Assembly: GCA_036574095.1 (NCBI GenBank)
Contig: JAINCO010000058.1
Span: 1-45,618, forward strand
Origin: Campylobacterales bacterium
Lineage (GTDB): Bacteria > Campylobacterota > Campylobacteria > Campylobacterales > UBA6016
Direction of reading: 5' to 3'
Length of the DNA stretch: 45,618 nt
The position numbers and the translations under genes were made by a program. The stretch's first letter is position 1; every line of letters starts with the position of its first letter. This document shows positions 12,353-37,468 of the stretch, in pieces. The notes beneath the pieces were generated by a model that had not been told where the DNA came from, did no database searches, and saw only the letters and a list, made by a program, of their open reading frames with translations.

Positions 12353-12952
12353 TTGCAATTAGTGCGCAAATCGAAAAAAGAGCTTAAACGCGAAGAGATT
12401 GTTCAGGCAGCTTGTAGGTTGTTTGCGTCGAAAGGGTACTATCTAACGACGATAGCCGATATTGCTGATGATGTGGGAATGAGTGTTGGGAATATGTACA
12501 ACTACTTTACCTCCAAAGAGGAGTTGGCTAAATATATCATCCAGTTTGCATCGCGTTATTTGGGGGAGAGGATGCGTGTGATTAATGAGGCCCCCCTTTC
12601 TGTGCGCGACAAGATCTTTTCCATCGTACGCCTCTATTTGGAGGCGGCGGTTGAGAAGCCCGAGTTGATTGACTACTTTTTGAGAGTGTATCTTGCTAAT
12701 CGGGAGGTCTTTTCCCAGGGGTGTCAGGGGTTGCTGTGTGTTGGAGAGTTCGTTACAGAGGTGATGATCCTCCTTGAAGAGGGGGCGCGCTCTGGAGAGC
12801 TTCGCAACCAAGAGTTTTTTACCGCCTTTTCTATGATGATGGGAACTCTCGCAGGGTTTGTTTTTCTTTCAGGGGAAGAGGTTCTCCCTCGTGACCTCCT
12901 AAGCTACAGTGATGAGATCGCTGACAACATCTGGCGCGCCCTCAAAGCCTAA
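12353..12952 (+). CDS. TetR/AcrR-family regulator, hydrogenase-linked
   Basis: HTH LFASKGY..TTIADIA..VGMSVGNMYNYFTSKEEL; overlaps the start of the hydrogenase small-subunit gene. Confidence 0.93.
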   Translation: MQLVRKSKKELKREEIVQAACRLFASKGYYLTTIADIADDVGMSVGNMYNYFTSKEELAKYIIQFASRYLGERMRVINEAPLSVRDKIFSIVRLYLEAAVEKPELIDYFLRVYLANREVFSQGCQGLLCVGEFVTEVMILLEEGARSGELRNQEFFTAFSMMMGTLAGFVFLSGEEVLPRDLLSYSDEIADNIWRALKA

Positions 12953-13828
12953 AAAGCAGAAGGCCATTTGGCTTCAAGGCATCACCTGTCATGGCAACAC
13001 CCATGCTTTTTTATCGCATGAAAGATCTGAGCGTGAAGCTTTTTTGGCCCTCTATGAACTCATTCATCCCCATCTTGATCCGCCCATATCGTATGTAAGG
13101 CAACAAGAGCCCTTTGATCTGTTGATTATCGAAGGGGCATTGCCAACTGCCACCGGGGTTTATTGGGCCGGAGGAGAGGATCTGCTTTATTTGGCGCAAA
13201 GATTGATTAGATTAGCTCGGGCTATTATCCTTGCGGGAAGCTGCGCAGTCTTTGGGGGAGTTCATCGGCTGGGGCGAGAGGAGGCTACGGGCCTTCTTAG
13301 TGCTGGTGAAGAAGATAAGGGGTGGCTTGAGAGCCAAGGCGTGAGCTCTTTAGCGAAAATCATTGCATTGCCAGGATGTCCAGTCCATCCGGCATGGATT
13401 ATTCAGAGTGGTGTGGCGCTGGCGTTGGGTGTTGAGCTTTTGTGCGATGAAAAGCATCGACCGTTGGCTTACTATGGAATGACTGTGCATGAGGGATGTA
13501 CACGTTGCGAAGCATTTGAGTGGAAGATCGAGGCTGATCGTTTTGGATCTGCTCAAGGTTGTCTTTTTTATCATCAAGGGTGTCGTGGCCCATGACATTA
13601 GGCGGGTGTAATGCAACCCTTTGGAATGGCATCAACTCAAAAACCCGCGCGGGTGTTCCTTGTTTTGGGTGTATGGCCTATGACTTTCCACGACATGGTC
13701 TCTTTGAAACAAAAAAATATATGGGGCTTCCTGATGAGATGCCGCTGGGGGTCTCTAAGCGCGCCTACTTTACGATGGCTGGTGTTGCCAAATCATTTCG
13801 GCATGAAAGACTTGGTTCATGCAAGTAA
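12909..13828 (+). pseudogene. Cytoplasmic group-2d-like [NiFe]-hydrogenase small subunit, frameshifted/split at ~13592
   Basis: WLQGITCHGN, GSCA, PGCP, HEGCTR, CLFYHQGCRGP then TGA (13593-95); continues in the -1 frame as MTLGGCNATLWNG..PCFGC; no Tat signal. May be a sequencing error rather than a true pseudogene. Confidence 0.8.
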
Positions 13829-15006
13829 CCTATGAGGTGTTGGCTCGTATCGAAGGGGAGGCGACATGGTCACTTGGTTGGCAGGATGGTCGGATCGTTT
13901 CGGCACAAATTACATTTCCTAATGTACGTGGTTTTGAGCGAATATTGCAAGGGCGGCCGGCATGGGATGCGCTTGTTATCACACCTCGTGTCTGTGGGAT
14001 TTGTGGGCAGGCACATCAGTTGGCAGCGGCGCGTGCCATTGAGGCAGTTTTTATCCGCGAAGGACGAGAGGTTGAGCTCTCATCAAAAGCCAACGAAGTT
14101 AGACTGATCCTATCAAGAGCTGAGCGGCTGCAAAGCCACCTAAAATGGGCAGCATTGACACTTCTTCCGCTTCTTGGGGGCGATCAAGAAACAAGAGAGG
14201 ATCTGCTTGAAGGGGCATCAAAACTTGCACGTATGATGGCACTTTTGGCTGGCCAGTATCCCCATAGCAGCGCGATGATTCCTGGTGGAACAACCTACCA
14301 TGGAAGTGTTGCTGACTATGTGAGGGGTGTTGTTTTGGCCCGTGAGATTGACCAGTTGATTGCTCGCCCCCTCGCTTTTCTAAACGAGGCTTGTCAAACA
14401 TCGACGATTCTTGCAAGGATACCCGGTGTAGCACATCCACTTTTGGTTCTGGAAGCACGCAAGGGGATCGTGGATGGTCAGGTTATTGATCTTGAGCCTG
14501 AAGATATAAGTATCCACGCCTCCCCTTATGGCAAGGCTCTTCCTGTGCGTATCGGAGGGAGGAGCTGGGAGGTTGGTCCTGTTGCGCGCGCAGCCTTGCG
14601 CTTGCCAGAGTGGCGCGAGCGTTTGGCTTGCGAGGGGATAAGAGCTAAAGATCGGATCGTAGCCCGCTTAGAAGAGATTAGCCTAGATGCAAGTGAACTT
14701 CATCAAAGTTGGCAGCGATTGGCTGTCAGTAGTGGCGTGTGGGATGAGCGGGCCAACGAGAAGATTAGTGGGGAGGGATGGGGGGTGGTAGAGGCGGCGC
14801 GCGGTAGTCTTGCGCACTATGTGCGGCTTGACGATGGGATGATTCAAGAGTATCGCCTTGTTACGCCAACTCAGTGGAATCTTGGCCCCTCACTACCTGA
14901 CTCTCCTTCAGTTGCCGAAGAGGCGCTTATCGGATTGCATTCGCCGGATGAGGCAGAGTTTGTTATCCGAAGTTTTGATCTATGCGCTGTCTGCACGACA
15001 CACTAA
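13819..15006 (+). CDS. Cytoplasmic group-2d-like [NiFe]-hydrogenase large subunit (compact, 395 aa)
   Basis: RIEGE, L1 PRVCGICGQAH, EAARG, PTQWN, L2 RSFDLCAVCTTH ending at the His (no cleavable tail). Confidence 0.88.
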   Translation: MQVTYEVLARIEGEATWSLGWQDGRIVSAQITFPNVRGFERILQGRPAWDALVITPRVCGICGQAHQLAAARAIEAVFIREGREVELSSKANEVRLILSRAERLQSHLKWAALTLLPLLGGDQETREDLLEGASKLARMMALLAGQYPHSSAMIPGGTTYHGSVADYVRGVVLAREIDQLIARPLAFLNEACQTSTILARIPGVAHPLLVLEARKGIVDGQVIDLEPEDISIHASPYGKALPVRIGGRSWEVGPVARAALRLPEWRERLACEGIRAKDRIVARLEEISLDASELHQSWQRLAVSSGVWDERANEKISGEGWGVVEAARGSLAHYVRLDDGMIQEYRLVTPTQWNLGPSLPDSPSVAEEALIGLHSPDEAEFVIRSFDLCAVCTTH

Positions 15007-15012
15007 CTAAGC

Positions 15013-15040
15013 GTAATACTTTTTACATTATTAGTATTAC
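15013..15040. promoter_or_regulatory. Putative NikR operator upstream of hydA
   Basis: Perfect inverted repeat GTAATACT-N12-AGTATTAC (GTAATA-N16-TATTAC), same 6-16-6 geometry as the E. coli NikR site GTATGA-N16-TCATAC. Confidence 0.7.
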
Positions 15041-15079
15041 TGATGATTTCATTTTTATTTAAGCTGCTCCTTGCTACCA

Positions 15080-15099
15080 TAATGAATGAATATTCATTA
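15080..15099. promoter_or_regulatory. Putative TetR-family operator upstream of hydA
   Basis: Perfect palindrome TAATGAAT-GAAT-ATTCATTA; core recurs at 35483-35498. Confidence 0.65.
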
Positions 15100-15112
15100 G
15101 CAAGGAGGAGCT

Positions 15113-16351
15113 ATGCAAGATGGTCGAAAGAGTAAGCTCTTTACGCAGGCACCTGTAGCGATTGAGACCAATCGAGGAAAGGATTTCTATCAGCGGTTCA
15201 GAGAGCAATGTGTTGCTAGGTTGAAGCAACTGCGCGCCCAAGAGCCTGTGGGTGGACGGATGAGCATGATAGACGTTATCCAAAGTGAGGGGATCAATCG
15301 CCGCGATTTCCTTAAGTGGGTGTCGATGACGACAGCAGCCTTGATGCTACCAGCCTCATTTGAGCCACTTGTAGCCGAGGCGGTTGAGGTGATGAACCGT
15401 GTCCCGGTTATTTGGATTGAATTGCAAGATTGTGCGGGCAACTCTGAGGCTATCTTGCGCTCGTCGGCTCCGACGATTGATGAGCTTATTTTTGATGTGA
15501 TTAGCCTTGAGTATCACGAAACGCTGATGGCGGCATCGGGCCATCAGGCCGAGAAGCAACTTGAGGATGCGTTGCACACCTTTAAGGGCAAATACATTCT
15601 CTTTGTTGAGGGGTCAGTGCCGCTAGCAATGAACGGCCAATATGGCACAATTGGTCCTAAAGGTGAAACCTTTGAAGAACACCTCAAGCGGCTAGCAGCA
15701 GATGCTGTTGCGGTTGTGGCGGTGGGAAGCTGCGCAACCTTTGGGGGTGTGCCGGCGGCTTCTCCTAATCCTACAGGAGCGGTTGGCGTGATGGATGTTA
15801 TCAAAGGAAAGCCAATCATTAACATTCCTGCCTGTCCGGCTAATCCGGCCAATATTGTTGGGGTTATTCTTCACTATGTTCTTTCAGGGACAATTCCTGA
15901 GCTTGATGCGCTCTTAAGACCCAAATTTGCGTTTGGCTATCGTATCCATGATAATTGCGAGAGGCGTGCCCATTTTGATGCGGGTGAGTTTGTTGAGGAG
16001 TGGGGTGATCATGGTGCCCAACACAACTGGTGTCTGTATAAGATGGGATGCAAGGGGCCGATGACATTCAACAACTGCTCAATCATCCGTTATAATGATG
16101 GTGTCAATTGGCCTATCGGTGTGGGACGAGGGTGTATTGGGTGTTCTGAGCCCGATTTTTGGGATAAATATGCCTATGAGCGGCCTATGGCTGATGCCGA
16201 TATCAAGGCGCCGGGCGGTGGTGTGGAGATGGCCGTGGATAAGTTTGGCTTGGGACTTTTGAGTGCAACGGCTGTAGGTATTGCCATCCATGCGGCAGCG
16301 AGTGCTATGGCTGGCAAAAAGAGTGATAGTGACAAAGGAGATGAGGCATGA
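15113..16351 (+). CDS. hydA: Membrane-bound group-1 [NiFe]-hydrogenase small subunit
   Basis: Tat motif NRRDFLK, DCAGNSE, PACP, IHDNCERR, CLYKMGCKGP, GCIGC, C-terminal anchor helix. Confidence 0.95.
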   Translation: MQDGRKSKLFTQAPVAIETNRGKDFYQRFREQCVARLKQLRAQEPVGGRMSMIDVIQSEGINRRDFLKWVSMTTAALMLPASFEPLVAEAVEVMNRVPVIWIELQDCAGNSEAILRSSAPTIDELIFDVISLEYHETLMAASGHQAEKQLEDALHTFKGKYILFVEGSVPLAMNGQYGTIGPKGETFEEHLKRLAADAVAVVAVGSCATFGGVPAASPNPTGAVGVMDVIKGKPIINIPACPANPANIVGVILHYVLSGTIPELDALLRPKFAFGYRIHDNCERRAHFDAGEFVEEWGDHGAQHNWCLYKMGCKGPMTFNNCSIIRYNDGVNWPIGVGRGCIGCSEPDFWDKYAYERPMADADIKAPGGGVEMAVDKFGLGLLSATAVGIAIHAAASAMAGKKSDSDKGDEA

Positions 16352-18077
16352 GCAAGCATATTATTATTGATCCCATCACCCGTATTGAAGGGCATCTGCG
16401 TATTGAAGTAAAGCTTGATGAAAACAATGTCGTCCTGATGCCTATAGCTCCTCAACGATGTTTCGTGGGATTGAGACAATTCTTAAGGGGCGCGATCCAC
16501 GTGATGCTGGTTTGTTGGCGATGCGCATTTGTGGTGTGTGTACAGGTACCCACTATGCTCGAAGTATCGAGGCGGTTGAGCATGCCTTTGGTGTGAAGGT
16601 TCCAACGAATGCGAGGCTTGTGCGAAACCTCATTCAGGGGGCTCTTTATCTACATGACCATCCAGTTCACTTCTATCACCTTCATGGACTCGATTTTGTT
16701 GATGTGGTTTCGGCACTTTCGGCTGATCCCAAAAAGGCGGTTGAGGTAGCCCATCGATTTACCGACACACCTTGGAATGCCAGTGAGGCCACCTACACGG
16801 CTGTCAAAGAACGGGTGTCTAAGTTTGTCAAGCAAGGACGCTTAGGGCTTTTTGGGAATGGCTACTGGGGAAATATGAGCTATAAATTTACTCCTGAAGA
16901 GAATCTTGTGGTGCTAAGCCACTATCTTGATGCCCTCGAAATTCAACGCGATTTGGCAAAAATGAGTGCAATTTTTGGCGGTAAGCAGCCTCATCCGCAA
17001 AGTATCGTTGTTGGTGGGGTAACCTGCATCCAGGATATCAAAAATCCTTCCCGCATCGCTTTGTTCAAAGAGCTCTTAGAAAAAGGGCGCCGATTTATCA
17101 AAAACGCGTATATTCCTGATTTGCTTTTAGCAGGAAAGGCTTATGGTGATGAGGCGCTGGCTGGTGTTGGCGCGGGATTGGGAAATTATCTTTCGTATGG
17201 TGATTTTCGTCTTGATGATAATGACTTTTACAAAGCAAGTCTTCTTTTCCCATCGGGTGTTGTCTATCATAAAGATTTGACAAAAGTCTTTGATCTTGAC
17301 CAGAGCAAGATTAAAGAGGATGTGACCCACAGTTGGTATAAGGGTTCTAAGAGCCTCCATCCTTTTGAGGGACAAACTGAGCCTGAGTATACGGGGTTGC
17401 AGAAAAAAGAGGATGGTTTTGCCTATCTTAAGACAGAAGAGAAGTATAGCTGGATCAAATCACCAACCTATGATGATCAGCGCGTCGAGGTTGGGCCACT
17501 GGCGCGGATGGTGGTTGGCTATGCGAGAGGTGACCGACGAATTCAGGGGTATGTTAATGATTTTCTTAAGCGTGGTAATCTTCCAGCCTCTGTTCTTTTC
17601 TCCACAATTGGTCGCACGGCAGCGCGCGGCATCGAAACAGAGTTAATGGCCGATGCGATGGTTGAATGGGTCGATCAGTTGGCTAAGAATGTTGCCTCTG
17701 GTAACCTTGAGACATGGACAAAGTTCGATTTTGATCATGTGAGCCAAGAGGCAGAGGGGTATGGCATGGCTGAGGCACCTCGCGGAGCCTTGGGGCATTG
17801 GGTGCGTATCAAAAATGGCAAGATCGAAAACTACCAAGCGGTTGTTCCAAGTACATGGAATGCTGCACCTCGCGATGGTAAGGGGCGCATGGGGGCCTAT
17901 GAAGCAAGTCTTATAGGCACAAAGCTTGCTAATCCCGAGCAGCCTCTTGAGATCTTACGCACGATTCATAGCTTCGATCCTTGCATTGCTTGTGCGGTCC
18001 ATGTGATCGATGCGAAGGGTAAAAACCTCGGTGAATTCAAACTTAATCCCCTTTCAGGAGCTTCCTGTGGCCTCTGA
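16348..18077 (+). CDS. hydB: Membrane-bound [NiFe]-hydrogenase large subunit, with apparent 1-nt frameshift at ~16435
   Basis: N-terminus IDPITRIEGHLRIEV in one frame; DAYSSSTMFRGIE, RICGVC ... HSFDPCIACAVH plus tail in the next frame. Confidence 0.9.
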
Positions 18078-18768
18078 GGTGCGCGTTCCCGTCAAGCGAA
18101 TGACCCGAACGGGACGCATCATTCACTGGGTCAATGCTCTTTCTATCGTTGCGGCTGTAGTAACAGGTTTGTATATCGGCCATCCATATTACCAGACCCT
18201 CATCAGTGATCCAGCCGTCGATAAATATGTGATGGCGTGGAATCGATTGATCCATTTTATTGGGGCGATTGTATTGGATGTCACCTCGGTTATCATTGTT
18301 TATCTCTACTTTTTTAGTCGCTTTGAAAAGGCCTATAAAAAGTTAATCCCCAACGCTCAAAACATTCTGGAGTTTAAAGAGGTTGTGATTAACCTTGTTA
18401 CGTTAAATCGACATAAACGTTTCGATAGTCGCCATGCTGACAGTTTTAATACGGTATACTTTACGATACTCCACCTCTTGCTCTTGTGGATGCTTGTAAC
18501 TGGGCTTCAGATGTATGTTCATGGCCTGTCGAGTGGCGAGAGTGCGATTGGTGCTTGGTGGCCTTGGTTGCTTCATGCTATGACTGATTGGACTTTGTGG
18601 GTGTGTGGTGGCATGATGGGGGTACGTGAGAGCCATCATGAAACAATGTACTGGATTTTGGCATGGACTATGTTTCATATCTATTATCAAATCTGGCGTA
18701 CGATCTATTGGCGTGAAGGGGATATAGCGATTGTCTTTGGCGGAGAAAAATTTGTCTTTAAATCCTAA
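18067..18768 (+). CDS. hydC: Hydrogenase cytochrome b subunit
   Basis: RIIHWVNA, TGLYI, RLIHF, HH..W...HIY heme ligands; GTG 18067 follows AGGAG. Confidence 0.92.
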   Translation: MASEVRVPVKRMTRTGRIIHWVNALSIVAAVVTGLYIGHPYYQTLISDPAVDKYVMAWNRLIHFIGAIVLDVTSVIIVYLYFFSRFEKAYKKLIPNAQNILEFKEVVINLVTLNRHKRFDSRHADSFNTVYFTILHLLLLWMLVTGLQMYVHGLSSGESAIGAWWPWLLHAMTDWTLWVCGGMMGVRESHHETMYWILAWTMFHIYYQIWRTIYWREGDIAIVFGGEKFVFKS

Positions 18769-19342
18769 GATCGTCGTTGTAGGCGTTGGCAATGTTCTTT
18801 TTAGGGATGAAGGGGTAGGGGTCTTTGCGGCAAAGTTTCTTGAAGCCAACTACACCTTTACTCCTCCTATTGAGATCGTTGATGGAGGAACCCTTGGCTT
18901 TGGTCTCATGGGTTATTTTCACGAGTATGAGCGCGTTGTGATCGTTGATACAGTTTCGGTGGAAGATGAGCCGGGGGCGCTTTATCGACTTCCTTCTGAT
19001 GTATTGATGGGTATGGGAAGTTACCGAAAAACAGCCCATGAGGTTGAGGTTCTGGAGATGCTTGAGATCTGTTCACTGTTAGAGAAGATAGCAGATGTAG
19101 TTGTGATCGGTATCGTCCCTGAGGATATCCAAACGGTTCAGATTGGCCTCTCTAAGCCGATTGAAGAGGCTTTTAGTGCGTTGATAGCCGCTATCGTGCG
19201 TGAGGTGGAGAGTTATGGCGTGCAGGTGGCACACAAGTTAGAACAGGTGCCTCTTAAAGAGGTTGTTGTAAGTTTCTTGGGTTCTTACCAAGGAACAGCA
19301 GTACAATCGGAGGCGGCATGGATCAGATCATCGATGCCCTAA
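18752..19342 (+). CDS. hydD: Hydrogenase maturation endopeptidase (HyaD/HybD family)
   Basis: GVGNVLFRDEGVG, DGGT, AHE motifs; TTG start after GGAG. Confidence 0.93.
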   Translation: MSLNPKIVVVGVGNVLFRDEGVGVFAAKFLEANYTFTPPIEIVDGGTLGFGLMGYFHEYERVVIVDTVSVEDEPGALYRLPSDVLMGMGSYRKTAHEVEVLEMLEICSLLEKIADVVVIGIVPEDIQTVQIGLSKPIEEAFSALIAAIVREVESYGVQVAHKLEQVPLKEVVVSFLGSYQGTAVQSEAAWIRSSMP

Positions 19343-20013
19343 AAGAGCATGATCTAACCCAAGAGCGCGTGTTGTGTGTTTGGTGGTCGATGAGAGAGGG
19401 TGGTAGTGGTCTATATGCCTATGCGCCTGGGCGCGAACCAGCACGGTTATCGGGTTTTTTGCCACTTCCTAAGCAAGGGGCTTTGGTGTGGGATGCGATC
19501 GAGGTGCTTGATGAGAGTGCATCACGCCTTCTTCCTCGTTTTTATGAGCGCTTTCCTGAATGCTACGAGGTGTTGCAAAGCTTGGATGTAGGTGAGCTGG
19601 CTACCGATGCACCATTGTGGATGTTAGCGTGTGCTGGGGCAATCATGGGGCTTAGTGATGAAGAGGTGGTAGAGGCTCTCAAGATGGAGCGTGGTAGTCT
19701 TCAGGTTGAGATGAAGAATCGATTGGATGGAGGGATTGCCAGGCTTGATACATTAAGAGCACTTCGTTCGCTTATAAGCTATAAAGTCGCGGGTGTTGCT
19801 AATGCGCAACTTGCCTTTTCGCTCTTTGAATCATTGGCCGACTATCTCTTAGCGACACTAAATGATGCAGCGCACCATTTCCCCGTTCTTCGCGTCCTCA
19901 CCGTGGGTGACTTGATCGCAGGCAATATAATTCTCAGGCGCCGTCTAAGCCATCGAGGTGGGAGCTACCAGTGGTTTGGACTGGATGCCCCCAAAGAAGA
20001 TCACTCGATATAG
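19318..20013 (+). CDS. Short HydE-like hydrogenase accessory protein
   Basis: Position after hydD; C-terminal LRSLISYKVAGV..LAFSLFESLADYL resembles the HydE C-terminal region (recognition from memory, not a search). Confidence 0.55.
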   Translation: MDQIIDALKEHDLTQERVLCVWWSMREGGSGLYAYAPGREPARLSGFLPLPKQGALVWDAIEVLDESASRLLPRFYERFPECYEVLQSLDVGELATDAPLWMLACAGAIMGLSDEEVVEALKMERGSLQVEMKNRLDGGIARLDTLRALRSLISYKVAGVANAQLAFSLFESLADYLLATLNDAAHHFPVLRVLTVGDLIAGNIILRRRLSHRGGSYQWFGLDAPKEDHSI

Positions 20014-20908: not shown

Positions 20909-23152
20909 ATGAATATGAGACAAAGGCGCCGTTATCTGCTTCGTGGCATCGTTCAAGGGGTTGGGTTTAGGCCCTTTGTTTGGCGAATTGCCAATGAGGC
21001 TGGTCTTACTGGTTTTGTTCGCAATGGATTGGCAGGTGTTGAGATCGAAGCTGAAGGAAGCAAGGAGGCGTTAGAAAGATTTGAGGCCTCTCTCTTTGGC
21101 ACGTTTCCGCCACTTGCACGGATTGATCACTGGCAAAAAATTGAGATTGAAGCGCGTGGGGATGAGGCGTTTGTGATCCTCTCAAGCGAGGCGAAGGAGG
21201 GGGGATATAGCATGGTGCCACCCGATATTGCTCTTTGTCCAGCTTGCCTAAGCGAAATGAATGATCCCTCTAATCGCCGCTACCGCTACCCCTTTATCAA
21301 CTGTACCGATTGTGGACCTCGCTATACGATTATTCGACGCTTGCCTTATGATCGCTCCAATACCTCCATGGCTGACTTTCCCATGTGTGCGGCATGCGCT
21401 GAGGAGTATGCCAACCCCTTGAGCCGTCGCTATCATGCTGAACCTATTAGCTGTCCTGATTGTGGTCCTACTCTCTCGCTTCTTTATCCTTCAGGTGAGT
21501 CGATGGGAATTGGTGGGGATGAGGCAATCGAAGCGACAGTGTCGATGCTTAAAGAAGGTGCTATTGTGGCTGTGAAGGGGATTGGTGGGTTTCATCTTGT
21601 TTGTGATGCGACGAATGAAAAGGCGCTTAGGCGACTACGAGAGCGAAAGCGTCGCCCCCGCAAGCCATTTGCCTTGATGGTAGCGTCGTTGGCTGCTGCA
21701 AAAGAGATCGTTGAGCTTGATGAGGCCCAGAGTCAGATGCTAACCTCTTGGCAGCGCCCAATTCTCCTGGCAAGACGGCGCGAGGGAGCTTGCGTTGCCC
21801 CATCTGTAGCCTTTGAGTTGCGATTTCTTGGTGTGATGCTACCTTATGCCCCCTTGCAGCAGCTGTTGCTTGAGCGCATGGTATCGCCTGTTGTGGCAAC
21901 AAGTGCCAATATCGCTGAAGAGCCGATCATTACGGCAGCAAGTGATGTCGTAGCGAGGTTGGGCGGGGTTGTTGATGCGATTCTTGATCATGATCGTGCT
22001 ATTGTTGCTGGATGTGATGACTCTGTTGTTCGCATGGTAGAGGGGCGTCCTATCTTTATCCGAAGGGCTCGTGGATTTGCTCCCTATAGCCTCACACTTC
22101 CAAGGCCTGTTACTCAACCGTTGCTTGGTGTTGGCGCGCAGCAGAAGTCCACGATTGCACTCGCGTTTGACACAACGCTTGTAATCTCCCCACACATTGG
22201 TGATTTAGAAGGGGTGAGGAGCGAGGCGCACTTTGAGCAGGTGGTGCATCGAATGGAGAGCCTATATAGTGTAACGCCAGCTAAGGCATGTGCCGACCAC
22301 AACCAAGCCTACCGAAGCACTCAATATGCAAGGCGACGATTTAGTGAAGTAGCGACAATTCAGCACCACGAGGCCCATCTGTGGGGGGCGCTTTTGGAGG
22401 CTGGATGGCTTGAGCGGCCTATTCTTGGGGTTATTTGGGATGGGACGGGTTTGGGGGTGAATCATGAGATTTGGGGTGGTGAATTTTTTCTTTATGATCA
22501 AGGAGTGATGGAGAGGATAGGTCATTTGGCGCCGTTGGGGTTATTGGGCGGTGAGGCGGCGATTCGTGAGCCTCGTCGGGTGGCTTTGTGGATGTTTTGG
22601 CAGCTACATGGTGAGGCAGCCTTTTCATCGCGCTTAGCCAACGAGGCCTTTACGACCCAAGAATTGGCTCTTTTAGCCCAGTTGGCGCGAGGGGGTAAGG
22701 CGATCCCAACAACCTCGATTGGTCGTTTGGTTGATGGTGTAGCGGCGTTGTTGGGAGTGGTCTATAAGAGTGGGTTTGAAGGTGAAGCGGGAATTGTCTT
22801 AGAGGGCTTCTATGATCCAGGGCTTGATCTAATCTATCCTATGCGATGGGAAGGCTCATCACTATCATGGCATGAAGCTGTGGCGGCAGTGGTGGCAGAG
22901 GGTGATCTGGTGCGAGGGGCTACCGGGTTTCTTAACGCTCTTGCGGAGGCGATTTTGTCAAAAGCTGCATCACTTTCCCTTCCTGTTGTGTGTAGTGGCG
23001 GTGTTTTTCAGAATGCCGCGCTGGTTGGGCGGCTGCTTAGAGGTGCTGCTGCAAGAGGGATTGAGCTTTTTATCCCTTCAATTCTGCCGCCCAATGATGC
23101 CTCGATCGCTGCAGGGCAGATTATTGGGCAGATTTTTAGTCATAGATCGTAG
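20909..23152 (+). CDS. hypF: Carbamoyltransferase HypF
   Basis: GIVQGVGFRPFV, two zinc fingers (CPAC..CTDCGPR; CAAC..CPDCGP), KGIGGFHL, QHHEAH, DGTG, PPND. Confidence 0.97.
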   Translation: MNMRQRRRYLLRGIVQGVGFRPFVWRIANEAGLTGFVRNGLAGVEIEAEGSKEALERFEASLFGTFPPLARIDHWQKIEIEARGDEAFVILSSEAKEGGYSMVPPDIALCPACLSEMNDPSNRRYRYPFINCTDCGPRYTIIRRLPYDRSNTSMADFPMCAACAEEYANPLSRRYHAEPISCPDCGPTLSLLYPSGESMGIGGDEAIEATVSMLKEGAIVAVKGIGGFHLVCDATNEKALRRLRERKRRPRKPFALMVASLAAAKEIVELDEAQSQMLTSWQRPILLARRREGACVAPSVAFELRFLGVMLPYAPLQQLLLERMVSPVVATSANIAEEPIITAASDVVARLGGVVDAILDHDRAIVAGCDDSVVRMVEGRPIFIRRARGFAPYSLTLPRPVTQPLLGVGAQQKSTIALAFDTTLVISPHIGDLEGVRSEAHFEQVVHRMESLYSVTPAKACADHNQAYRSTQYARRRFSEVATIQHHEAHLWGALLEAGWLERPILGVIWDGTGLGVNHEIWGGEFFLYDQGVMERIGHLAPLGLLGGEAAIREPRRVALWMFWQLHGEAAFSSRLANEAFTTQELALLAQLARGGKAIPTTSIGRLVDGVAALLGVVYKSGFEGEAGIVLEGFYDPGLDLIYPMRWEGSSLSWHEAVAAVVAEGDLVRGATGFLNALAEAILSKAASLSLPVVCSGGVFQNAALVGRLLRGAAARGIELFIPSILPPNDASIAAGQIIGQIFSHRS

Positions 23153-25463: not shown

Positions 25464-25487
25464 GCCACAAAAAAGAGGGGGGTTTTG

Positions 25488-28286: not shown

Positions 28287-29270
28287 ATGAAACGCTTCCG
28301 ACGGCTTCGCCAGACTTCACCTTTGCGCGCAATGGTGCGTGAAACCTCCCTAAGTGTCAACGATCTGATCTACCCCCTCTTTGTCCGTTCAGGTAGCGGT
28401 GTGCGCCGCGCTATTGCATCGATGCCAGGCATCTTTCAGCTTTCGATTGATGAGGCGATCAAAGAGGCGGGTGAGGCGATGGCGCTAGGAATTTCTAGTG
28501 TCATTCTCTTTGGCATTCCTGATATCAAAGATAGCATCGGCTCAGACGCTCTTTGTGAGCATGGTATCATTGCTGAAGCGACCCGCGCGCTCAAAAAAGC
28601 CTACCCCGAGCTCATCGTTGTGACTGATTTATGTTTTTGTGAATATACCGATCATGGTCATTGTGGCATCTTGGATGCGCGCACCCAAAGTGTCGATAAT
28701 GATGCGACACTTGATATCCTTGTACGGCAAGCACTCATTCATGCCAACGCTGGCTCAGATATCATTGCTCCTAGTGGGATGATGGATGGGACGGTTGAGG
28801 CGTTGAGGCGTGGATTGGATGCGGCCGGGTTTAGTCATCTACCAATCATGAGCTACTCAACAAAATTTGCCAGTGCCTACTATGGGCCCTTTCGTGATGC
28901 TGCCGAATCGGCACCCGGTTTTGGCGATCGACGCACCTATCAGATGGATCCAGCCAATCGGCGAGAGGCTATCGCTGAGAGTCTTGAGGATGAGAGGCAA
29001 GGAGCCGATATCTTGATGGTCAAGCCAGGTTTGGCCTATCTTGATATTATTCGTGATATTCGCAATGCCACAACCCTGCCTTTGTGTGTCTATAATGTCT
29101 CGGGTGAATATGCGATGCTTAAACTCGCAGGTCAGGCAGGTGTGATCGATTATGATCGTGTTCTTCTTGAGACAATGATCGCTTTTAAGCGCGCGGGTGC
29201 CGATCTGATCATCACGTATCATGCCAAAGAGGTGGCCACATTGTTGCAACAAGGCCCGTTGCCCTTTTAA
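28287..29270 (+). CDS. hemB: Porphobilinogen synthase
   Basis: [36 protein letters not shown]. Confidence 0.98.
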
Positions 29271-29315
29271 GCGAAATATGTTACAATGATCTTTTAGTGC
29301 CAAAAGGATGGGTTC

Positions 29316-30242
29316 GTGAGACATTTTTTGACAATCCGGGATTTTAGCAAAACTGAGCTTTTAGAGATGCTACGCCTTTCGCATGCCATCAAGGCTGAAA
29401 CGAAGCGCGGTGAGCAGGTCAGCTACCTGGAAGGGCAGACGCTGGGGATGATCTTTGAAAAGAGTAGTACGCGCACGCGTGTCAGTTTTGAGGTGGGGAT
29501 GTATCAGTTGGGTGGTTATGCCCTCTTTCTCTCAAACCGAGACCTTCAGCTTGGGCGCGGTGAGCCGATCAAAGATAGTGCACGCGTTATTAGCCGCATG
29601 GTCGATATGGTGATGATTCGTACCTTTGAGCAAGCAAGAATCGAGGAGTTTGCCGCCTATTCGCGCGTTCCTGTGATTAATGGCTTAACAGATCAATACC
29701 ATCCGGTTCAGGTGATGACCGATTATATGACGATGCAAGAGTATGGCAAAGGCGATCATCCAGTTGTGGCATGGGTAGGTGATGGAAACAATATGGCCCA
29801 TAGCTGGCTGATGTTGGCCTCGAAACTTGGCTTTGAGCTTCGCTTGGCAACACCTGCTGGGTATGATCCCGATCCCAAAATCCTTGCTCAAGCGCAAGAA
29901 TTTGCTGCTGATAGTGGGGCAAAGATTCTATTAACGCACGATCCCAAAGAGGCGGTAAAGGGTGCTGATGTTGTTACAACTGATGTTTGGACGAGCATGG
30001 GGCAAGAGGAGGAGAGTGCCAAAAGGCTCAAGGATTTTGCCGGCTTTACTATTGATGAGGCGTTGATGCGTTTGGCTGATCCTGAGGCGATCTTTCTTCA
30101 CTGTCTTCCCGCGCATCGAGGTGAAGAGGTCAGCGAAGAGGTCTTTGAAGGCAGACAGAGTGTTGTCTTTGATGAGGCAGAAAACCGCCTCCATTTCCAA
30201 AAAGGTCTGATGGTTTGGCTTGATCGTGAGCGCCATCGTTAA
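29316..30242 (+). CDS. argF: Ornithine carbamoyltransferase
   Basis: SSTRTR, HPVQ, SMG, HCLP, AENR. Confidence 0.97.
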
Positions 30243-30355
30243 AGTGCAAAGCTAAAGGATCAAGCTTTTAGTCAGATGGCTCAAGGTCTAAAATTTAACG
30301 ATGAATCTGCTATACTACCTTACTTTTTTCGTGATTGAGTCGTAAGGAGAGCAAG

Positions 30356-31438
30356 ATGAGGCGTTACCTATTATTAGTTTCGTTGATGATAGTAAGTGCG
30401 TGGGCTGCGAGTGCGCAAGAGTGCCGTTCTTGCCATCCAGCCATCGTGCAGGAGTGGGAGAGCTCTGCGCATGCGATGGCGCACACATCAAAAAATGAAC
30501 TTTATGCCAAGATGGTGGCTGCTATTGCCTCGGCCAAAGGGGTTTCGCACGAGGCGGCACAAATGCGCTGTAATCTCTGCCATGCCCCATTAGAGGAGGC
30601 CAATATCTCCCATGAAGGGGTGAGCTGTAGCGTATGCCATCAGATTGATACAATCAAGCATCGCGATGCCACGAAGCCACCTGTGGGGCGCAATATGCTT
30701 GTACCCATGAAAGAGTTGGTGATGTCAGGCCCATGGGACGATGCGACATCACCATACCATGGTAGCGTGAAGCGTGATTTTATGCAACCATCAAGTGATC
30801 AGCTCTGTTTGACATGTCATCAGATGATGAAAAATGAGCAAAAGGTTGTTGTTTGTGCCACGGGCGTTGAGCATCAGGCAAGCGGCGAGAAGAAGAGCTG
30901 TATCGAGTGTCACATGGGGGCGGCTATCCAGGGTAAAATCTCGACCCTCTCATCAAAAGAGCGCCCGATGCGAAGCCACCGTTTTTTAAGTGCGCGCAAC
31001 AGTACTCTCTTAGCCGAGGCTATTAAGCTTTCTGCACACCAAGAAGCAAGAGAATTGGCAGTGACGCTTATCAACCGCTCATCGCATAACTTCCCAACAG
31101 GAACAGCAGCTAGGTTTGTGACTGTTGAGGTTGAATTTATCGACGCTCATGGGGTGGTGATCGCATCACAAACAACACCACTTGTTGCGAAGTTTCTTGA
31201 TGCAGAGGGCAAGCTAACGCTTCCTCCTTTAGCTGTTAAAGCAGGTGAGGATAGTCGTTTGCAACCAGCCGAAACGAGAGTGATGCGCTACAGCCTACCA
31301 AAAAAGGCTAAAGAGGCACGCGTAAAAATCATCTATCGCCTCGCTTCACCAACATTAGCCCAAAAGTTGGGGGTTAAGGGTGAGGAGTGGACGAAGCCTC
31401 GTCTTGTGGCTGAGCAAAGAGTTAGCCTAAAGCCTTGA
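30356..31438 (+). CDS. Periplasmic pentaheme c-type cytochrome (c554/c552-like)
   Basis: Signal peptide; five CxxCH (CRSCH, CNLCH, CSVCH, CLTCH, CIECH); HNFPTG; AAGGAG RBS; TGCTATACT at 30308-16. Confidence 0.88.
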
Positions 31439-31745
31439 TCAGATAACATCTCCCATCTGAAGTTGGGATATACCACCAAACAATTGCCCCATGACGTGCC
31501 GCGTTCGAAAGGGGGCGTGGTCGGGGGCAATTGACATTTGGGTAGTCAATTCCTCCCGCAAAAAGTGGATTACAGCGCAAGACTCTTAAGAGTGTATCCC
31601 AAAGAGCTTGAGGCATCGTGCCTTGAGCAATCTGCCAGCGAGCATATTCTGAGCAGGTTGGATAGTAGCGACATGAGCCATAAGAGACAACGGTCAAATA
31701 GCGCTGATAGAACTTCAAAAATCCTAACAAAAGCCTTCTTATCAT
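31422..31745 (-). CDS. yidD: Membrane protein insertion efficiency factor YidD
   Basis: [27 protein letters not shown]; start reassigned to ATG 31745. Confidence 0.92.
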
Positions 31746-31821
31746 ACAATACATTATACCACAAAGCTCTTTTTGAGAAATTGTGTTATAATCAACAATT
31801 CTCATTTTAAGGAGGCGTTAG

Positions 31822-32307
31822 ATGGGAGGATTGTTAGGATCGCTTCATCCTTTTTTTGTCCACTTTGCCGTGGCACTGCCAATTGTCGCCTTTGTTCTTG
31901 ATCTAGGTCATAGGGTGCGTGGTTCAGAGGTTTGGGCACGGTGTGCGATGATCATGATGATCGCGGGTGCTTTGATGGTAGCATTAGCGTTTTTTTCAGG
32001 TCATTTTGCCGAAGAGAGTGTTGAATCATTTTTAAGCCCTGCAGCCAAAGAGCTCTTTGAAACCCATGAGGTGATGGGTAAGGTGGTGATGGGGTTGATG
32101 CTCGTGCTTGCCGTTGCGAGACTCTATCTTGGCACCAAAGAGGCATCCTATATGCGCTCACTTTATTTGGGTGCACTGGCAATTGTGATAGCTTTGATTC
32201 TCTATCAAGGTAAGGTTGGCGGGGAGCTTGTCTATGAGCATGGTGTTGGAACAGTGTTGATGCAACAAAGCACCACTCAGCCTTACATGGAGGAAGAGGA
32301 GAGATAA
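31822..32307 (+). CDS. DUF2231-like membrane protein
   Basis: LHPFFVHF, H in a later helix, GGELVYEHGVG; AAGGAGG RBS; TGTTATAAT at 31784-92. Confidence 0.82.
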   Translation: MGGLLGSLHPFFVHFAVALPIVAFVLDLGHRVRGSEVWARCAMIMMIAGALMVALAFFSGHFAEESVESFLSPAAKELFETHEVMGKVVMGLMLVLAVARLYLGTKEASYMRSLYLGALAIVIALILYQGKVGGELVYEHGVGTVLMQQSTTQPYMEEEER

Positions 32308-32338
32308 AGCGTTGTGTGAGAAACGATGAAAGGCAAAG

Positions 32339-32869
32339 ATGAAGCGTAATAATATCGTATTAATCGGATTTATGGGGGTTGGCAAAGGGACAACAGCGCG
32401 TCTGGTGGCAAAAAAGAGTGGGATGATGGCGGTCGATACCGATGATTTGATTGAGAGCTTGACCAAAAAGCCGATCAGAAAGATTTTTGAAAAGCGAGGT
32501 GAGGCCTATTTTAGAGCCTTAGAGCAGCGTGTTGCCGATTGGCTTGCAACAAGTGTGGAGAATACGATCATTTCAACCGGGGGTGGCTTTTATAAAGTTG
32601 AGCGCCTGGGCGAGATTGGAACGATCATCTATCTAAGAGCAAGTTTTGAGTGGATCTATAATCGAATCGCTCTTCATCCTAACGCCAAAGCCAAATTTGC
32701 CAAGCGCCCTTTGTTTAAAGAAAAAAAACGGGCTCGCGAACTCTATGAATCCCGTAAAACTGCCTATGATGCGGCTGCTGATGTGATTATTGATGTTGAA
32801 AATAAAAGCAACGAGGAGCTTTTAGAGGAGATCTTTAGACTGGAGTGCTTTAGCCTAAAGCATCGTTAA
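32339..32869 (+). CDS. aroK: Shikimate kinase
   Basis: IGFMGVGKGT, DTD, GEAYFR, STGGG, RPL. Confidence 0.9.
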   Translation: MKRNNIVLIGFMGVGKGTTARLVAKKSGMMAVDTDDLIESLTKKPIRKIFEKRGEAYFRALEQRVADWLATSVENTIISTGGGFYKVERLGEIGTIIYLRASFEWIYNRIALHPNAKAKFAKRPLFKEKKRARELYESRKTAYDAAADVIIDVENKSNEELLEEIFRLECFSLKHR

Positions 32870-33285
32870 TGGGCTAACGCTCCTGTTTTGACGAGTTTAG
32901 CAAACTTGACCCCCTCAAGCCCTGCGATTTTGGTGGTGATGGCACGGATATCGGCCGCATCTCCTTGGAGAATGATCGTCTCTAAGCAGTTGTGGTGGTC
33001 AAGGTGAACATGGGTTGAGCAAAGAATGTGAACAGATGCATCATGTTGGATAGCTAGAAGTTGTTGGGTGAGCTCATGCTCGTGGTGATCATAGATCATT
33101 GTCAAAACACCCACTACCTCACCCTCATTCTCTTCCCACCGTCTCTCAAGGATCTGTTCGCGGATTAAATCTCGTATGAATTCACTACGCGAGACATATC
33201 CTTGATAAACGATTTCGCCATCAAGAGCCTTCAAAAGAGGCTCGGGCAAAGAGACTGAAAAGCGGATAAACTTATCTTGTTCCAT
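32866..33285 (-). CDS. nikR: Nickel-responsive regulator NikR
   Basis: RHH N-terminus RFSVSL..SRSEFIRDLIR; YDHH, QH, HVHLDHHNCLE. Confidence 0.96.
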   Translation of the reverse strand: MEQDKFIRFSVSLPEPLLKALDGEIVYQGYVSRSEFIRDLIREQILERRWEENEGEVVGVLTMIYDHHEHELTQQLLAIQHDASVHILCSTHVHLDHHNCLETIILQGDAADIRAITTKIAGLEGVKFAKLVKTGALAH

Positions 33286-33308
33286 CTTTTGAGTTTAGCA
33301 TAGAAGGA

Positions 33309-34277
33309 CTAAAAGATCGTTGAAAATGTGACGATGAGACGATAGCGCTCCTTTCCTTCCGCACCCTGCTGCTGATCCTCTTCATTTAAGTTTGTCCAGA
33401 ACGGTTTTTTAAGCCCAAGGGCAAAACTTGAGCTATCCTTAAACAAACGAACGCCAAGGAGTCCATAGAGAATCTGACCCCCGGTAGCTACGGCTGGTGT
33501 ACCATTTTCAATATCTCGCTCAAGCTTCAGATAATTGGCCTCACCCACAAGGTCAAGGCGAAACTTCTTTTCAGGCCATGTGATGGCGCGCCACGAGAGA
33601 GCCTCGGATAGGCGCTGTTCACTACCATACTCAATGGTTGATTGATCTTCAAAGGTATAGGGAAGAAAGTTGATCAACGAGAACTCAGTAGTACTTGTGA
33701 GTCGTTCACCAATCATTTTTGTTGCTGTAGCACCAACTATCCATGAGGGTTTGCCAAATCCTAAGGCCATATCGGTATTAAGTTGACCATTCTGGTAGAC
33801 ATTGGGCGTGCCTGTTGGTAGGGTGCCTCCTATATAGAGGGTAAAGTGCCAATCGGCCATCTCATCAAGACTTTCGCTTGCAGGGGTAAGCTTGAACCCT
33901 TCATCATATTTGAATCCCAAAACAGCCATGAGGCTTATGTCGGTAAAACCAGCCGTGTTGGCACTATTGCTCTCATCTTTTTTGACCGTATAAGGTAGAA
34001 AACCATAAAGAGAGAGCCATGGTGTTGCGCCATAGCCTAGCCCATACATCCAGTAGGCGTTACTCTTACCCTCCCGATCATCGGCAGGTGTGTAGGTTTC
34101 AAAGCTATTGTAATCAAGTTTCATCAATGCCAGCAAACTCCCCTCAGGAAGGGTCGCTGATGTCGAGGTCTCAACAGGGGCTCCAGGACCCTCTAAAGAG
34201 GCAGGGCCTAATGAGGCGACACCATGATGGGCCCATACGAGTGGGCAAAGAAGAGTAATAAGGGTAACATTACGCAT
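33309..34277 (-). CDS. Putative outer-membrane beta-barrel channel with N-terminal His-His
   Basis: Signal peptide then HHG; GFTD, TLPTG, LGFG pattern; amphipathic strands; terminal Phe; start ATG 34277 after AAGGAG. Confidence 0.7.
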   Translation of the reverse strand: MRNVTLITLLCPLVWAHHGVASLGPASLEGPGAPVETSTSATLPEGSLLALMKLDYNSFETYTPADDREGKSNAYWMYGLGYGATPWLSLYGFLPYTVKKDESNSANTAGFTDISLMAVLGFKYDEGFKLTPASESLDEMADWHFTLYIGGTLPTGTPNVYQNGQLNTDMALGFGKPSWIVGATATKMIGERLTSTTEFSLINFLPYTFEDQSTIEYGSEQRLSEALSWRAITWPEKKFRLDLVGEANYLKLERDIENGTPAVATGGQILYGLLGVRLFKDSSSFALGLKKPFWTNLNEEDQQQGAEGKERYRLIVTFSTIF

Positions 34278-34686
34278 GAAAACTCCTTTTGCGAGATTGA
34301 TAGAGAGCAACTAAGCCAAAAAGAGTACCTATGATCCCAAGGCCTGTGGCGATTTTGGCATAATGGCTCCAAAAATCGTCGGTTTGTGATTGGAGCGTTT
34401 CAGTGACATGAATTGTGACTGTCGCACCATGGCCGTTGGCGCTAAAGGCCTTGATTTTCCAGTTCCCGGGTCGATCAGGAACAAAGGCAAACCGCCCCAG
34501 TTTATCGGTTACCCCCGTTTGAAACGCTACACTCTCTCCTGGTGCATAAATCTCGACTGTCTCATAGGCAAAGGGGGTGTTGTCGGCATAGAAGAAACGA
34601 AGGGCATACGCGCCCTCGACGGGTGCATGAAGCAGCTCATGGGCATGAAGCATGAGGGCAACAAGGGTGATGAAGACGATTTTCAT
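34270..34686 (-). CDS. NikL-like accessory protein of nickel ECF transporter
   Basis: Signal peptide then His; FQTGVTDKLGRFAFVP..G.W.....GH; C-terminal TM. Confidence 0.7.
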   Translation of the reverse strand: MKIVFITLVALMLHAHELLHAPVEGAYALRFFYADNTPFAYETVEIYAPGESVAFQTGVTDKLGRFAFVPDRPGNWKIKAFSANGHGATVTIHVTETLQSQTDDFWSHYAKIATGLGIIGTLFGLVALYQSRKRSFHA

Positions 34687-35354
34687 GGGATGACCTTGAG
34701 GCTAAGGGTTGTGGTGGTGATAGTTGAATCGGCTTCAGGGCCTTGATAGGGGGTTGTGTGGCTTGCGCTAATAAGCACTAATCCTGCCTCGGGGAGAGTG
34801 AGGTTGATGCGCCCTTCTTGATCAGTGACGCCACGAATACGACTATTGACAGCCACGGGGGCATTGGGGATGGGGCGATTGGCTTTGATGAGTTGTAGGC
34901 GAATTCTCTCGCCCTTCTTCCAAGGAGAGGGTTTGGGGTTGGTGATGAGAAATTGTAAAAACTCTCCTAAGGCCTTGGTGCCACCTCGCTCAATCCACTG
35001 GGCAATCTCAAGACTTTTCCAAGAAGCAAGAGGAGTTGGGACCTCAGTTTTAGGAAGATGCTTGGTTCCATAGGGGGATTTTGTCCAAAAACCGCTATCT
35101 TTAACCACCAACAAAGCATTACAGCTTTTTGGAAGGCGCAAAGGTGTGGCCAAGGGACGAGGTAATGATCGGATGATGCCACTCTCATCACACAAAATGG
35201 TCGTGATGGAGCTGCTCTCATAAGGAAGAGTTGGTTCTTCATCGTGTGATTGGTAGTGACCATAAAAGAGGGTTAATTGACCATCTTTGGTATCGATCCA
35301 CAGATCATGGGCGCCAAGTGAAAGGGTGATGATAATGAGCCAAAGATAGCGCAT
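34683..35354 (-). CDS. DUF4198 / NikK-like periplasmic protein
   Basis: Signal peptide then HDLWI; YGH; TDQEG. Confidence 0.75.
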   Translation of the reverse strand: MRYLWLIIITLSLGAHDLWIDTKDGQLTLFYGHYQSHDEEPTLPYESSSITTILCDESGIIRSLPRPLATPLRLPKSCNALLVVKDSGFWTKSPYGTKHLPKTEVPTPLASWKSLEIAQWIERGGTKALGEFLQFLITNPKPSPWKKGERIRLQLIKANRPIPNAPVAVNSRIRGVTDQEGRINLTLPEAGLVLISASHTTPYQGPEADSTITTTTLSLKVIP

Positions 35355-35387
35355 AGCTTCTCCTAACTGCGAATTTTGCCTATTTAA

Positions 35388-35415
35388 GTAATATCAAGAT
35401 ACTTATCGATATTAT
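35388..35415. promoter_or_regulatory. Putative NikR operator in divergent nik promoter region
   Basis: GTAATA-N16-TATTAT (TAATATC..GATATTA symmetric), matching the hydA site. Confidence 0.7.
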
Positions 35416-35419
35416 TTTA

Positions 35420-35498
35420 ACGAATAGTCATTCATTTGTCAATAGATCATTCGTAACAATTTTTAGTTACAATTAATGTAAAATGAATTACAATTCAT
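35420..35498. promoter_or_regulatory. Two putative TetR-family operators
   Basis: ACGAAT-AGTC-ATTCAT (35420-35) and ATGAAT-TACA-ATTCAT (35483-98). Confidence 0.6.
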
Positions 35499-37466: not shown

Positions 37467-37468
37467 CA

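Follow-up and report, generated by a model that had tools for sequence, protein, structure and literature searches.

A conserved palindrome, a TetR-family repressor and a cytoplasmic hydrogenase point to a possible, undescribed bacterial way of sensing hydrogen

The stretch of DNA analyzed here (the window; 45,618 nucleotides [nt], contig JAINCO010000058.1 of a Campylobacterales bacterium) carries a gene for a TetR-family repressor whose frame overlaps the start of the small-subunit open reading frame (ORF) of a cytoplasmic hydrogenase. Downstream lies hydABCD, which encodes the small subunit exported by twin-arginine translocation (TAT), the large subunit, the cytochrome b and the maturation protease of a membrane-bound uptake hydrogenase, and further along the contig lie nikM, a nikQ-like gene and nikO, which encode an energy-coupling factor (ECF)-type Ni/Co importer, followed by hypBCD. 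Genes were assigned by a Pfam scan of the 39 ORFs of the window (Table 1). The scan agrees with a preliminary description made from the sequence, which had named this TetR as the only one in the window and had seen no histidine kinase or NtrC-type regulator; none was found among the 39 ORFs. Another TetR gene is present on contig C99 of the same genome (G000; 1.58-Mb draft, 166 contigs, 95% complete, 46.5% G+C). The preliminary description had overlooked the nikR gene, a probable NikR box at hydA and the division of the small-subunit gene into two pieces. Taken together, a palindrome repeated at promoters of these genes, the TetR and the hydrogenase point to a possible, undescribed bacterial way of sensing hydrogen.

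The palindrome ATGAAT-N4-ATTCAT occurs exactly before hydA and again in the divergent region between nikM and DUF4198, where a copy with one mismatch (ACGAAT-AGTC-ATTCAT) is also found; the three positions and the extended form at hydA are those of the preliminary description. With up to one mismatch allowed, the window contains three matches against 0.35 expected, and none of 100 shuffles gave three. The relaxed core TGAAT-N4-ATTCA, searched at the same tolerance, returned the same three sites only. In the whole draft genome there are three exact sites, two of them in the window, and no site for a reversed control pattern, and when the core was searched with spacings of 0 to 8 nt, each spacing gave 0 to 4 sites. 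Counted genome-wide, the bare core shows no enrichment. The third exact copy (C45:11938-11953) falls in a spacer of a probable mobile element, flanked by a gene for a phage-type integrase and a small ORF resembling AlpA; no link to hydrogenase genes was seen, and this copy is possibly a chance occurrence.

At hydA the palindrome begins within a -10-like CATAAT (15078-15083) and ends 4 nt upstream of the AAGGAGG Shine-Dalgarno/ribosome-binding site, with the ATG at 15113; a sigma-70-type promoter scan at hydA gave no match. The one-mismatch copy lies between the -35 TTGACA (35442-35437) and the -10 TAAAAT (35419-35414) of a minus-strand promoter with 17-nt spacing and an 11/12 sigma-70-like match. 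The nikM copy contains the -10-like TACAAT (35489-35494) of a plus-strand candidate promoter. Sites that overlap -10 boxes or promoter spacers in this way are in repressor positions.

The palindrome was followed in a panel of 41 genomes, consisting of G000 and 40 relatives (10 of them from the same family), and in a wider sample obtained by scanning the TetR alignment against one genome per species. The wider scan found at least 554 relatives, and the best 80 loci were used, comprising 982,141 bases from Aquificota (Persephonella, Hydrogenothermaceae, and Sulfurihydrogenibium) and Campylobacterota (Arcobacteraceae, Sulfurimonas, Sulfuricurvum, Sulfurospirillum, Hydrogenimonas, and Nitratifractor). 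The 30 best hydA loci of the panel were compared, with hydA called close at 70% identity or more. All eight close hydA genes linked to the TetR (G000, G013, G015, G024, G026, G028, G033, and G038) have an exact core 15 to 26 nt before the start and 2 to 3 nt after a TAnAAT box, against 0 of 14 close hydA genes from TetR-less genomes (G001-G010, G018, G023, G031, and G039) with even a two-mismatch match within 100 nt. This is the difference between hydA genes with and without the TetR that the preliminary description had led us to look for. Among the 14 TetR-less genomes, five sister species have in common a two-mismatch match ~200 nt upstream of hydA, and an unlinked second hydA copy in the TetR-bearing genome G036 is without the motif. 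Seven distant hydA genes (50 to 58% identity) have weaker matches only, with two mismatches near the start in G019 and G032 and ~260 nt upstream in G014 and G020. In a public set of 53 loci with the hydA start and at least 150 nt of upstream sequence, in which sites were sought within 300 nt, the core is exact in 31 and has at most one mismatch in 49.

For nikM the expected pattern was found in part: an exact core lies directly upstream in the TetR-bearing genomes G000, G038, and G040 and in none of the 10 same-family genomes that lack the TetR; the nikM of G036 is found within an operon. Around the 80 TetR orthologues there are 48 exact cores, all in spacers. Of these, 34 precede hydA, four DUF4198, three hypB, two hypC, one nikM, and one the TetR gene; the remaining three lie in spacers without annotation, and no annotated gene contains a core. 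In addition, 13 of 77 TetR orthologues have a site with at most one mismatch ~40 nt upstream of the TetR gene itself, and exact sites lie ~75 nt in front of TetR paralogues of G019 and G040, an arrangement that would fit autoregulation. Chance as the source of the repeat is excluded by the shuffled windows and by the placement of all 48 cores in spacers. Position and codistribution across two phyla thus support the palindrome as a real shared operator that marks a conserved hydABCD/nik/hyp regulon, and the operator over hyd, nik, and hypBCD put forward in the preliminary description is upheld at the level of sequence.

Two other arrangements were seen upstream of hydA. In Arcobacteraceae loci (L106-L162), a variant, TAAATGAAC/ATTCATTT, that is a palindrome with a shorter spacer lies 23 to 33 nt before hydA, and a canonical exact site is often found 160 to 250 nt upstream, right after the large-subunit stop codon. 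The variant proximal site together with the canonical distal site suggests two operators, possibly with looping. In five TetR-less loci of the same family (L063, L064, L066, L069, and L076), another conserved inverted repeat, GTTAAG...TTTAAC, lies ~50 to 70 nt before hydA, which suggests that another regulator may act on hydA in that family.

The TetR gene is the only DNA-binding gene consistently beside the palindrome sites, and the recognition-helix residues S-x-G-x-x-Y-N-Y-F are invariant in 52 aligned TetR sequences. We consider it very probable that the TetR binds TGAAT-N4-ATTCA as its operator. That NikR or a Fur-family regulator binds the palindrome instead, or that it is an RNA hairpin or a chance repeat, has a very small probability in our estimation. 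NikR is encoded beside the nik promoter, and the extended hydA site resembles an AT-rich Fur-type box. Fur family genes are present in 41 of 41 genomes, and Fur was rejected because a universal protein does not track the motif. NikR was rejected by its distribution, since it is present in 9 of 10 TetR-less relatives that are without the motif at hydA and was not found in seven of the eight genomes with the palindrome at hydA. Moreover, a 5-4-5 palindrome fits a single dimeric helix-turn-helix protein, not the widely spaced half-sites of NikR operators, and it does not follow NikR from genome to genome. A hairpin was considered because the hydA palindrome tips a strong one that covers the ribosome-binding site, but sequence is conserved beyond pairing, across phyla and before different genes, and the arm opposing the ribosome-binding site was not seen in other genomes.

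The hairpin itself spans 15062-15112 (-26.5 kcal/mol, z -5.3); in its outer arms, CUCCUUGCUA is paired with the ribosome-binding site of hydA. On read-through transcripts from the upstream hydrogenase genes, translation of hydA could be blocked by this structure.

TetR orthologues (50 to 59% identity, E < 1e-60) were found in 12 of the 40 relatives, all from other families of the same order, and in none of the 10 same-family genomes; over the relatives and the 80 public loci, identities range from 50 to 64%. The cysteine pair to which the preliminary description had drawn attention (GCQGLLCV) is present, and its C-x-G-x-x-C pattern is kept unchanged in all 52 aligned orthologues; the six aligned paralogues lack it or have it in altered form. 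An AlphaFold2 model of the L153 orthologue has nine helices in the all-helical two-domain TetR fold (mean predicted local distance difference test [pLDDT] 88.3; predicted template modeling score [pTM] 0.82). A profile of the 52 orthologues matched many solved TetR proteins (best E 5e-13); the closest are all uncharacterized or functionally unrelated, and the 60 matches listed are TetR-type regulators only. Some Campylobacterales (G019, G036, and G040) carry two to three extra TetR copies with 39 to 49% identity (L044, L048, L053, L054, and L055). These paralogues have the same recognition helix and lack the second cysteine, and some of them have the palindrome in front of their own gene and stand apart from any hydrogenase.

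Nickel might be thought the signal for such a protein. NikR (PF08753) is present in 17 of the 41 genomes, including 9 of 10 TetR-less same-family relatives and 2 of 13 TetR genomes (G000 and G032), so a TetR that binds nickel through its cysteine pair and sets both nickel uptake and hydrogenase synthesis could have replaced NikR in the 11 TetR genomes where NikR was not found. TetR-family metal sensors exist, and the regulon includes nickel importers. We nevertheless regard this as improbable. The window and several Aquificota loci carry both regulators, the window promoters have a separate NikR-like box, and the conserved ligand candidates in the 52 orthologues are two cysteines only, with no histidine cluster. 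With the same repressor-type site on importer and hydrogenase promoters, nickel would switch its own uptake and use alike, which we infer to be implausible homeostasis, and a nickel sensor would leave the obligate pairing with the hydrogenase, described below, unexplained.

NikR more probably provides a second input. A box of the form GTAATAC-N14-GTATTAC precedes hydA and a weaker, tentative one overlaps the DUF4198 -10 element (Table 1). Relatives of the same family that have NikR but not the TetR carry boxes of this kind in front of hydA and nikM. The boxes are probable NikR operators, as their distribution suggests, and the window promoters would then respond to nickel as well as to the TetR. 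In Helicobacter pylori, NikR acts on hydABC and nickel uptake (PMC6682613; this and the other PMC papers are cited from part of their text). The present regulon resembles NikR regulons in that hydrogenase and nickel-uptake promoters are under a common regulator and in that the window, too, has NikR and a NikR-like box at hydA. Across the 41 genomes the TetR module and NikR are almost mutually exclusive (both in 2, TetR only in 11, NikR only in 15), and G000 is one of those with both.

The cytoplasmic hydrogenase is called group-2d-like here on the basis of synteny with hupSL of Sulfurospirillum multivorans and of its Aquificota and Campylobacterota relatives. The best solved relative of the large subunit is Huc hydrogenase-2 (7utd), a group 2a enzyme. 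The large subunit has the NiFe ligand motifs RVCGICGQAH (N-terminal) and DLCAVCTTH (at the C-terminal end) and ends at the final histidine, which is nearly invariant as the last residue in 51 aligned relatives; there is thus no C-terminal extension. In the Pfam scan hydA has a TAT signal match and the cytoplasmic small-subunit ORFs have none, which identifies the latter subunit as cytoplasmic. Standard small subunits carry CxxC at the proximal iron-sulfur cluster. Across this family the first motif of that cluster reads C-N-G-N (in the window C-H-G-N, 12975-13000), leaving three cysteines for the cluster.

In the window the small subunit is divided. The N-terminal piece overlaps the TetR stop codon and ends in ...GCRGP followed by TGA; the C-terminal piece holds the medial-cluster cysteines and the tail predicted to dock on the TetR, a tail that is highly conserved in the aligned related loci. 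All 76 related loci have the small subunit in one ORF. Over the split region, an independently assembled contig (hot-springs metagenome DNA run, probably the source sample; depth 40.7) shows no indel. Because the family-invariant columns are largely kept (48 of 50 in the two small-subunit pieces and 54 of 59 in the large subunit), the split gene is probably functional, not decayed, and may work as two polypeptides. In six other loci (L091, L092, L105, L130, L147, and L162), 0.7 to 3.7 kb of extra DNA lies between the small- and large-subunit genes.

The TetR and this hydrogenase occur together. The small-subunit gene follows the TetR in 78 of the 80 loci, the exceptions being a contig edge and a locus with hypF in its place. 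In the panel, the large subunit is present in exactly the 13 of 41 genomes with the TetR (13 of 13 against 0 of 28). A second sample of 101 Aquificota genomes, which brings the total to 142, has the TetR in 56 genomes; the large subunit was found in 51, every one of them with the TetR. The TetR match contains stop codons in two of the five TetR-only Aquificota genomes. No hydrogenase without the TetR was found in the 142 genomes. The pairing does not depend on linkage. At least seven genomes have the TetR and large-subunit genes on one contig but separated by more than 100 kb; in G076, G079, and G056, both hydrogenase genes are far from the TetR, which lies among motif-bearing hyp, nik, or hyd genes, and in G069 the TetR adjoins the small subunit and the large subunit lies ~680 kb away, directly before hydA with its operator. 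The unlinked hupSL of G076 has no operator at up to one mismatch, so the hydrogenase there does not look like a target of the TetR. By gene content, the TetR and the cytoplasmic hydrogenase are an obligate genomic pair.

To our knowledge, no complex of a TetR protein with a hydrogenase has been solved. A complex of the large subunit, small subunit and TetR of locus L153 was modeled with custom alignments and three controls. The model scored 0.64, against 0.26 for the best control, with at least 73% of contacts shared between runs and a partner pLDDT of at least 83. In the calibration, 116 of 157 solved complexes attained this mark, as did 2 of 215 mismatched pairs. In the modeled interface, small-subunit residues 253-280 meet TetR residues 123-126, in the Cys loop, and 129-156. 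The model supports a physical TetR-hydrogenase complex as a prediction.

In the mechanism that we propose, the TetR would sit on the core promoters of hydABCD, nikMQO-hypBCD, and the divergent DUF4198...nikR operon. Since the same repressor would act on these units, everything needed for an active uptake hydrogenase would be switched together, with NikR adding a separate nickel input through its own box. The group-2d-like hydrogenase, cotranscribed with the TetR, would be its sensor. The C-terminal tail of the small subunit would dock on TetR helix 7 and the C-x-G-x-x-C loop, oxidation of H2 would act on the TetR, through a thiol/disulfide change or through a metal or cluster bound to it, and the TetR would leave the DNA, so that the presence of H2 would derepress the regulon. 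Three points of this scheme are inferences: the identity of the signal as H2, the sense in which the regulon responds, and the chemistry of the cysteines. A signal meaning "H2 present, conditions reducing" would fit the regulon and, by analogy, match the logic of regulatory-hydrogenase systems.

We give a probability of about 0.5 to this explanation as a whole, that is, a TetR operator and regulon with the hydrogenase as sensor. Of the one-component switch outlined in the preliminary description, the operator, the regulon, and the TetR-hydrogenase pairing have held up in the sequence comparisons. For the signaling step, in which the hydrogenase passes an H2 or redox signal to the TetR, we see a shade less than an even chance; counted in its favor are the co-occurrence of unlinked genes, the complex model, the missing C-terminal extension, and published low expression of the hydrogenase. 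More tentatively still, the group 2d hydrogenases of both phyla may not be metabolic and may instead be the H2-detecting half of a switch, passing reducing power directly to the TetR, either at its cysteine pair or at a metal or cluster bound there.

The rival with real weight is an ordinary local TetR that senses a small molecule, oxygen, or thiol redox alone, the hydrogenase being merely a regulated enzyme, for example, a supplier of low-potential reductant. We hold this to be possible, though on the doubtful side. It fits the operator and regulon evidence equally well, and regulators are commonly first in the operon they control, but it does not call for a pairing that is obligate even when the genes are unlinked (51 of 51 and 13 of 13 genomes) or for an unlinked hupSL that is without the operator, as in G076. 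A metabolic role for group 2d has been proposed, supplying reductant for the reverse tricarboxylic acid cycle (PMC5401914; PMC2628731); very weak expression of the hydrogenase in two organisms suits a sensor better than a bulk enzyme (PMC10052474; PMC5357620). In S. multivorans, a TetR-like gene lies directly upstream of hupSL and was suggested simply to repress it, hupL is barely transcribed, and the constitutive membrane-bound hydrogenase argues against strict control by H2 (PMC5357620). On the side of the hydrogenase as sensor are also the conserved small-subunit tail and the modeled complex, which outscored its controls and has the invariant Cys loop in its predicted interface.

Several observations weigh against the sensor explanation. 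The membrane-bound hydrogenase of S. multivorans was reported to be highly transcribed almost regardless of conditions, even in long culture with no H2 added (PMC5357620); the present operator precedes hydA in a Sulfurospirillum metagenome-assembled genome (L152). The calibration of the complex model used single-chain pairs and other alignments, so that its counts are approximate. The Cys loop, between helices 6 and 7 of the TetR model, is of low confidence (pLDDT 57 to 67), and the distal-cluster ligands are not part of the interface as listed. In the genome of the window the hydrogenase is much more diverged than the TetR (31 to 39% against 59% median identity), and the loss of 1 nt has split its small subunit after GCRGP, creating the ATGA stop/start overlap at 13592-13595. 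No motif was seen within 300 nt of hydA in 4 of the 53 public loci, and nikM is without it in the TetR-bearing genomes G019, G022, and G032, where the expectation of the preliminary description for nikM failed. The bare 10-base core is not enriched genome-wide in three other genomes (G041, 3 against 4 for the control; G042, 11 against 9; G043, 4 against 5), so only the position of sites is informative, not their number. Finally, related genomes are not independent samples.

The proposed switch has likenesses among known systems. With the group 2b regulatory hydrogenases (HoxBC-HoxJ-HoxA of Cupriavidus necator and HupUV-HupT-HupR of Rhodobacter capsulatus) it shares a low-abundance cytoplasmic NiFe hydrogenase without a large-subunit extension and, judged by regulon content, control of uptake-hydrogenase, maturation, and nickel-supply genes. 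HoxB and HoxJ make contact through the C-terminal end of the small subunit, and contact with the transducer through that end is predicted here as well. The systems differ in that the transducer of the module would be a one-component TetR repressor at the core promoter. No kinase or NtrC-type activator was recognized beside the module in the 80 loci, which were annotated by the window's own proteins; the rest of the genome of the window was not searched for them. The hydrogenase is also of a different subgroup, with group 2a Huc as its best solved relative and CNGN in place of CxxC. A protein partner controls a TetR-family regulator in AmtR with GlnK of Corynebacterium glutamicum. By analogy, the module would likewise have a protein effector for a TetR-fold repressor, the partner here being a redox enzyme, and the TetR carrying an invariant cysteine pair at the predicted interface.

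The closest published locus is that of S. multivorans, which has the same gene order of TetR, hupS, hupL, and hydABC (PMC5357620), and the TetR orthologous loci include three from uncultured Sulfurospirillum (L152, L159, and L169). In the part of that paper available to us, an operator is not named, nor is a regulon larger than hupSL or a connection with hydABC, nik, or hyp genes, and contact between TetR and hydrogenase is not mentioned (PMC5357620). The function of group 2d has been called unresolved and possibly regulatory, and Aquifex hydrogenase III hard to detect (PMC10052474). Published proposals include reductant supply or ferredoxin reduction and, from phylogeny, H2 sensing (PMC5401914; PMC2628731; PMC10052474). 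The word TetR is absent from the accessible part of a review of respiratory regulation in Campylobacterota, which does not cover the control of hydrogen uptake (PMC6682613). In full-text literature, subscription-only papers such as the S. multivorans genome paper aside, no such operator, regulon, or TetR-hydrogenase sensor was found described, the remark on S. multivorans being the only one of its kind.

Different roles have been proposed for group 2d since its discovery in Aquifex and vent Epsilonproteobacteria, and the present analysis gives it a defined candidate operator, a regulon, an obligate partner, and a predicted interface. If the sensor explanation is true, H2 would control DNA binding without a kinase, second messenger, or small ligand, through an ancient sensor common to two deep-branching chemolithoautotrophic phyla, and a redox enzyme would for the first time be known as the effector of a TetR protein. 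It would also offer a compact H2 biosensor of two gene products and correct the way in which group 2d hydrogenases are counted in metagenomic surveys of H2 metabolism.

Table 1. Genes and candidate regulatory sites of the window (positions in nt; assignments of regulatory sites are predictions)
Feature	Position	Strand	Details
TetR-family repressor gene	12353..12952	+	TTG start, 199 aa; PF00440, E 4e-15, residues 16-61
Cytoplasmic hydrogenase small subunit, N-terminal piece	12912..13595	+	227 aa from ATG 12912 (ORF from 12909); PF01058 and N-terminal half of PF14720
Cytoplasmic hydrogenase small subunit, C-terminal piece	13592..13828	+	78 aa from ATG 13592 (ORF from 13559); C-terminal half of PF14720
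Cytoplasmic hydrogenase large subunit	13819..15006	+	395 aa; PF00374
Putative NikR box	15013..15040	.	GTAATAC-N14-GTATTAC; upstream of hydA; only exact copy in genome
Candidate TetR operator O-hydA	15082..15097	.	Extended form TAATGAAT-GAAT-ATTCATTA, 15080-15099
hydABCD	15113..19342	+	PF14720/PF01058/PF10518, PF00374, PF01292, PF01750
hypF	20909-23152		Pfam
DUF4198, orf138, orf333, nikR operon	32866..35354	-	Pfam; DUF4198 (34683-35354) first, nikR last
nikR	32866-33285	-	Pfam
Weak NikR-like box (tentative)	35389..35416	.	GTAATAT-N14-ATATTAT; 3 mismatches to the hydA box; overlaps DUF4198 -10
Candidate TetR operator, 1 mismatch	35420..35435	.	Fills spacer of minus-strand DUF4198 promoter
Candidate TetR operator O-nikM	35483..35498	.	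ATGAAT-TACA-ATTCAT; 22 nt before nikM ATG
nikM, nikQ-like, nikO, hypB, hypC, hypD	35521..39631	+	PF01891, PF00005, PF02492, PF01455, PF01924
hypE	40462-41475		Pfam

The genes from nikM through hypD probably form one operon, because their ORFs overlap or abut. A horizontal origin of the module from Aquificota was considered. Identity of the TetR to sequences from Aquificales reaches 64%, and the same-family relatives are without the module; the identities of the neighboring nik and hyp genes, from 29 to 67%, speak neither for nor against such an origin. The DUF4198, orf138, orf333, and nikR gene set is clustered with nikM, nikO, nikR, hypB, and the TetR in five Aquificota loci (L095, L096, L100, L111, and L166).

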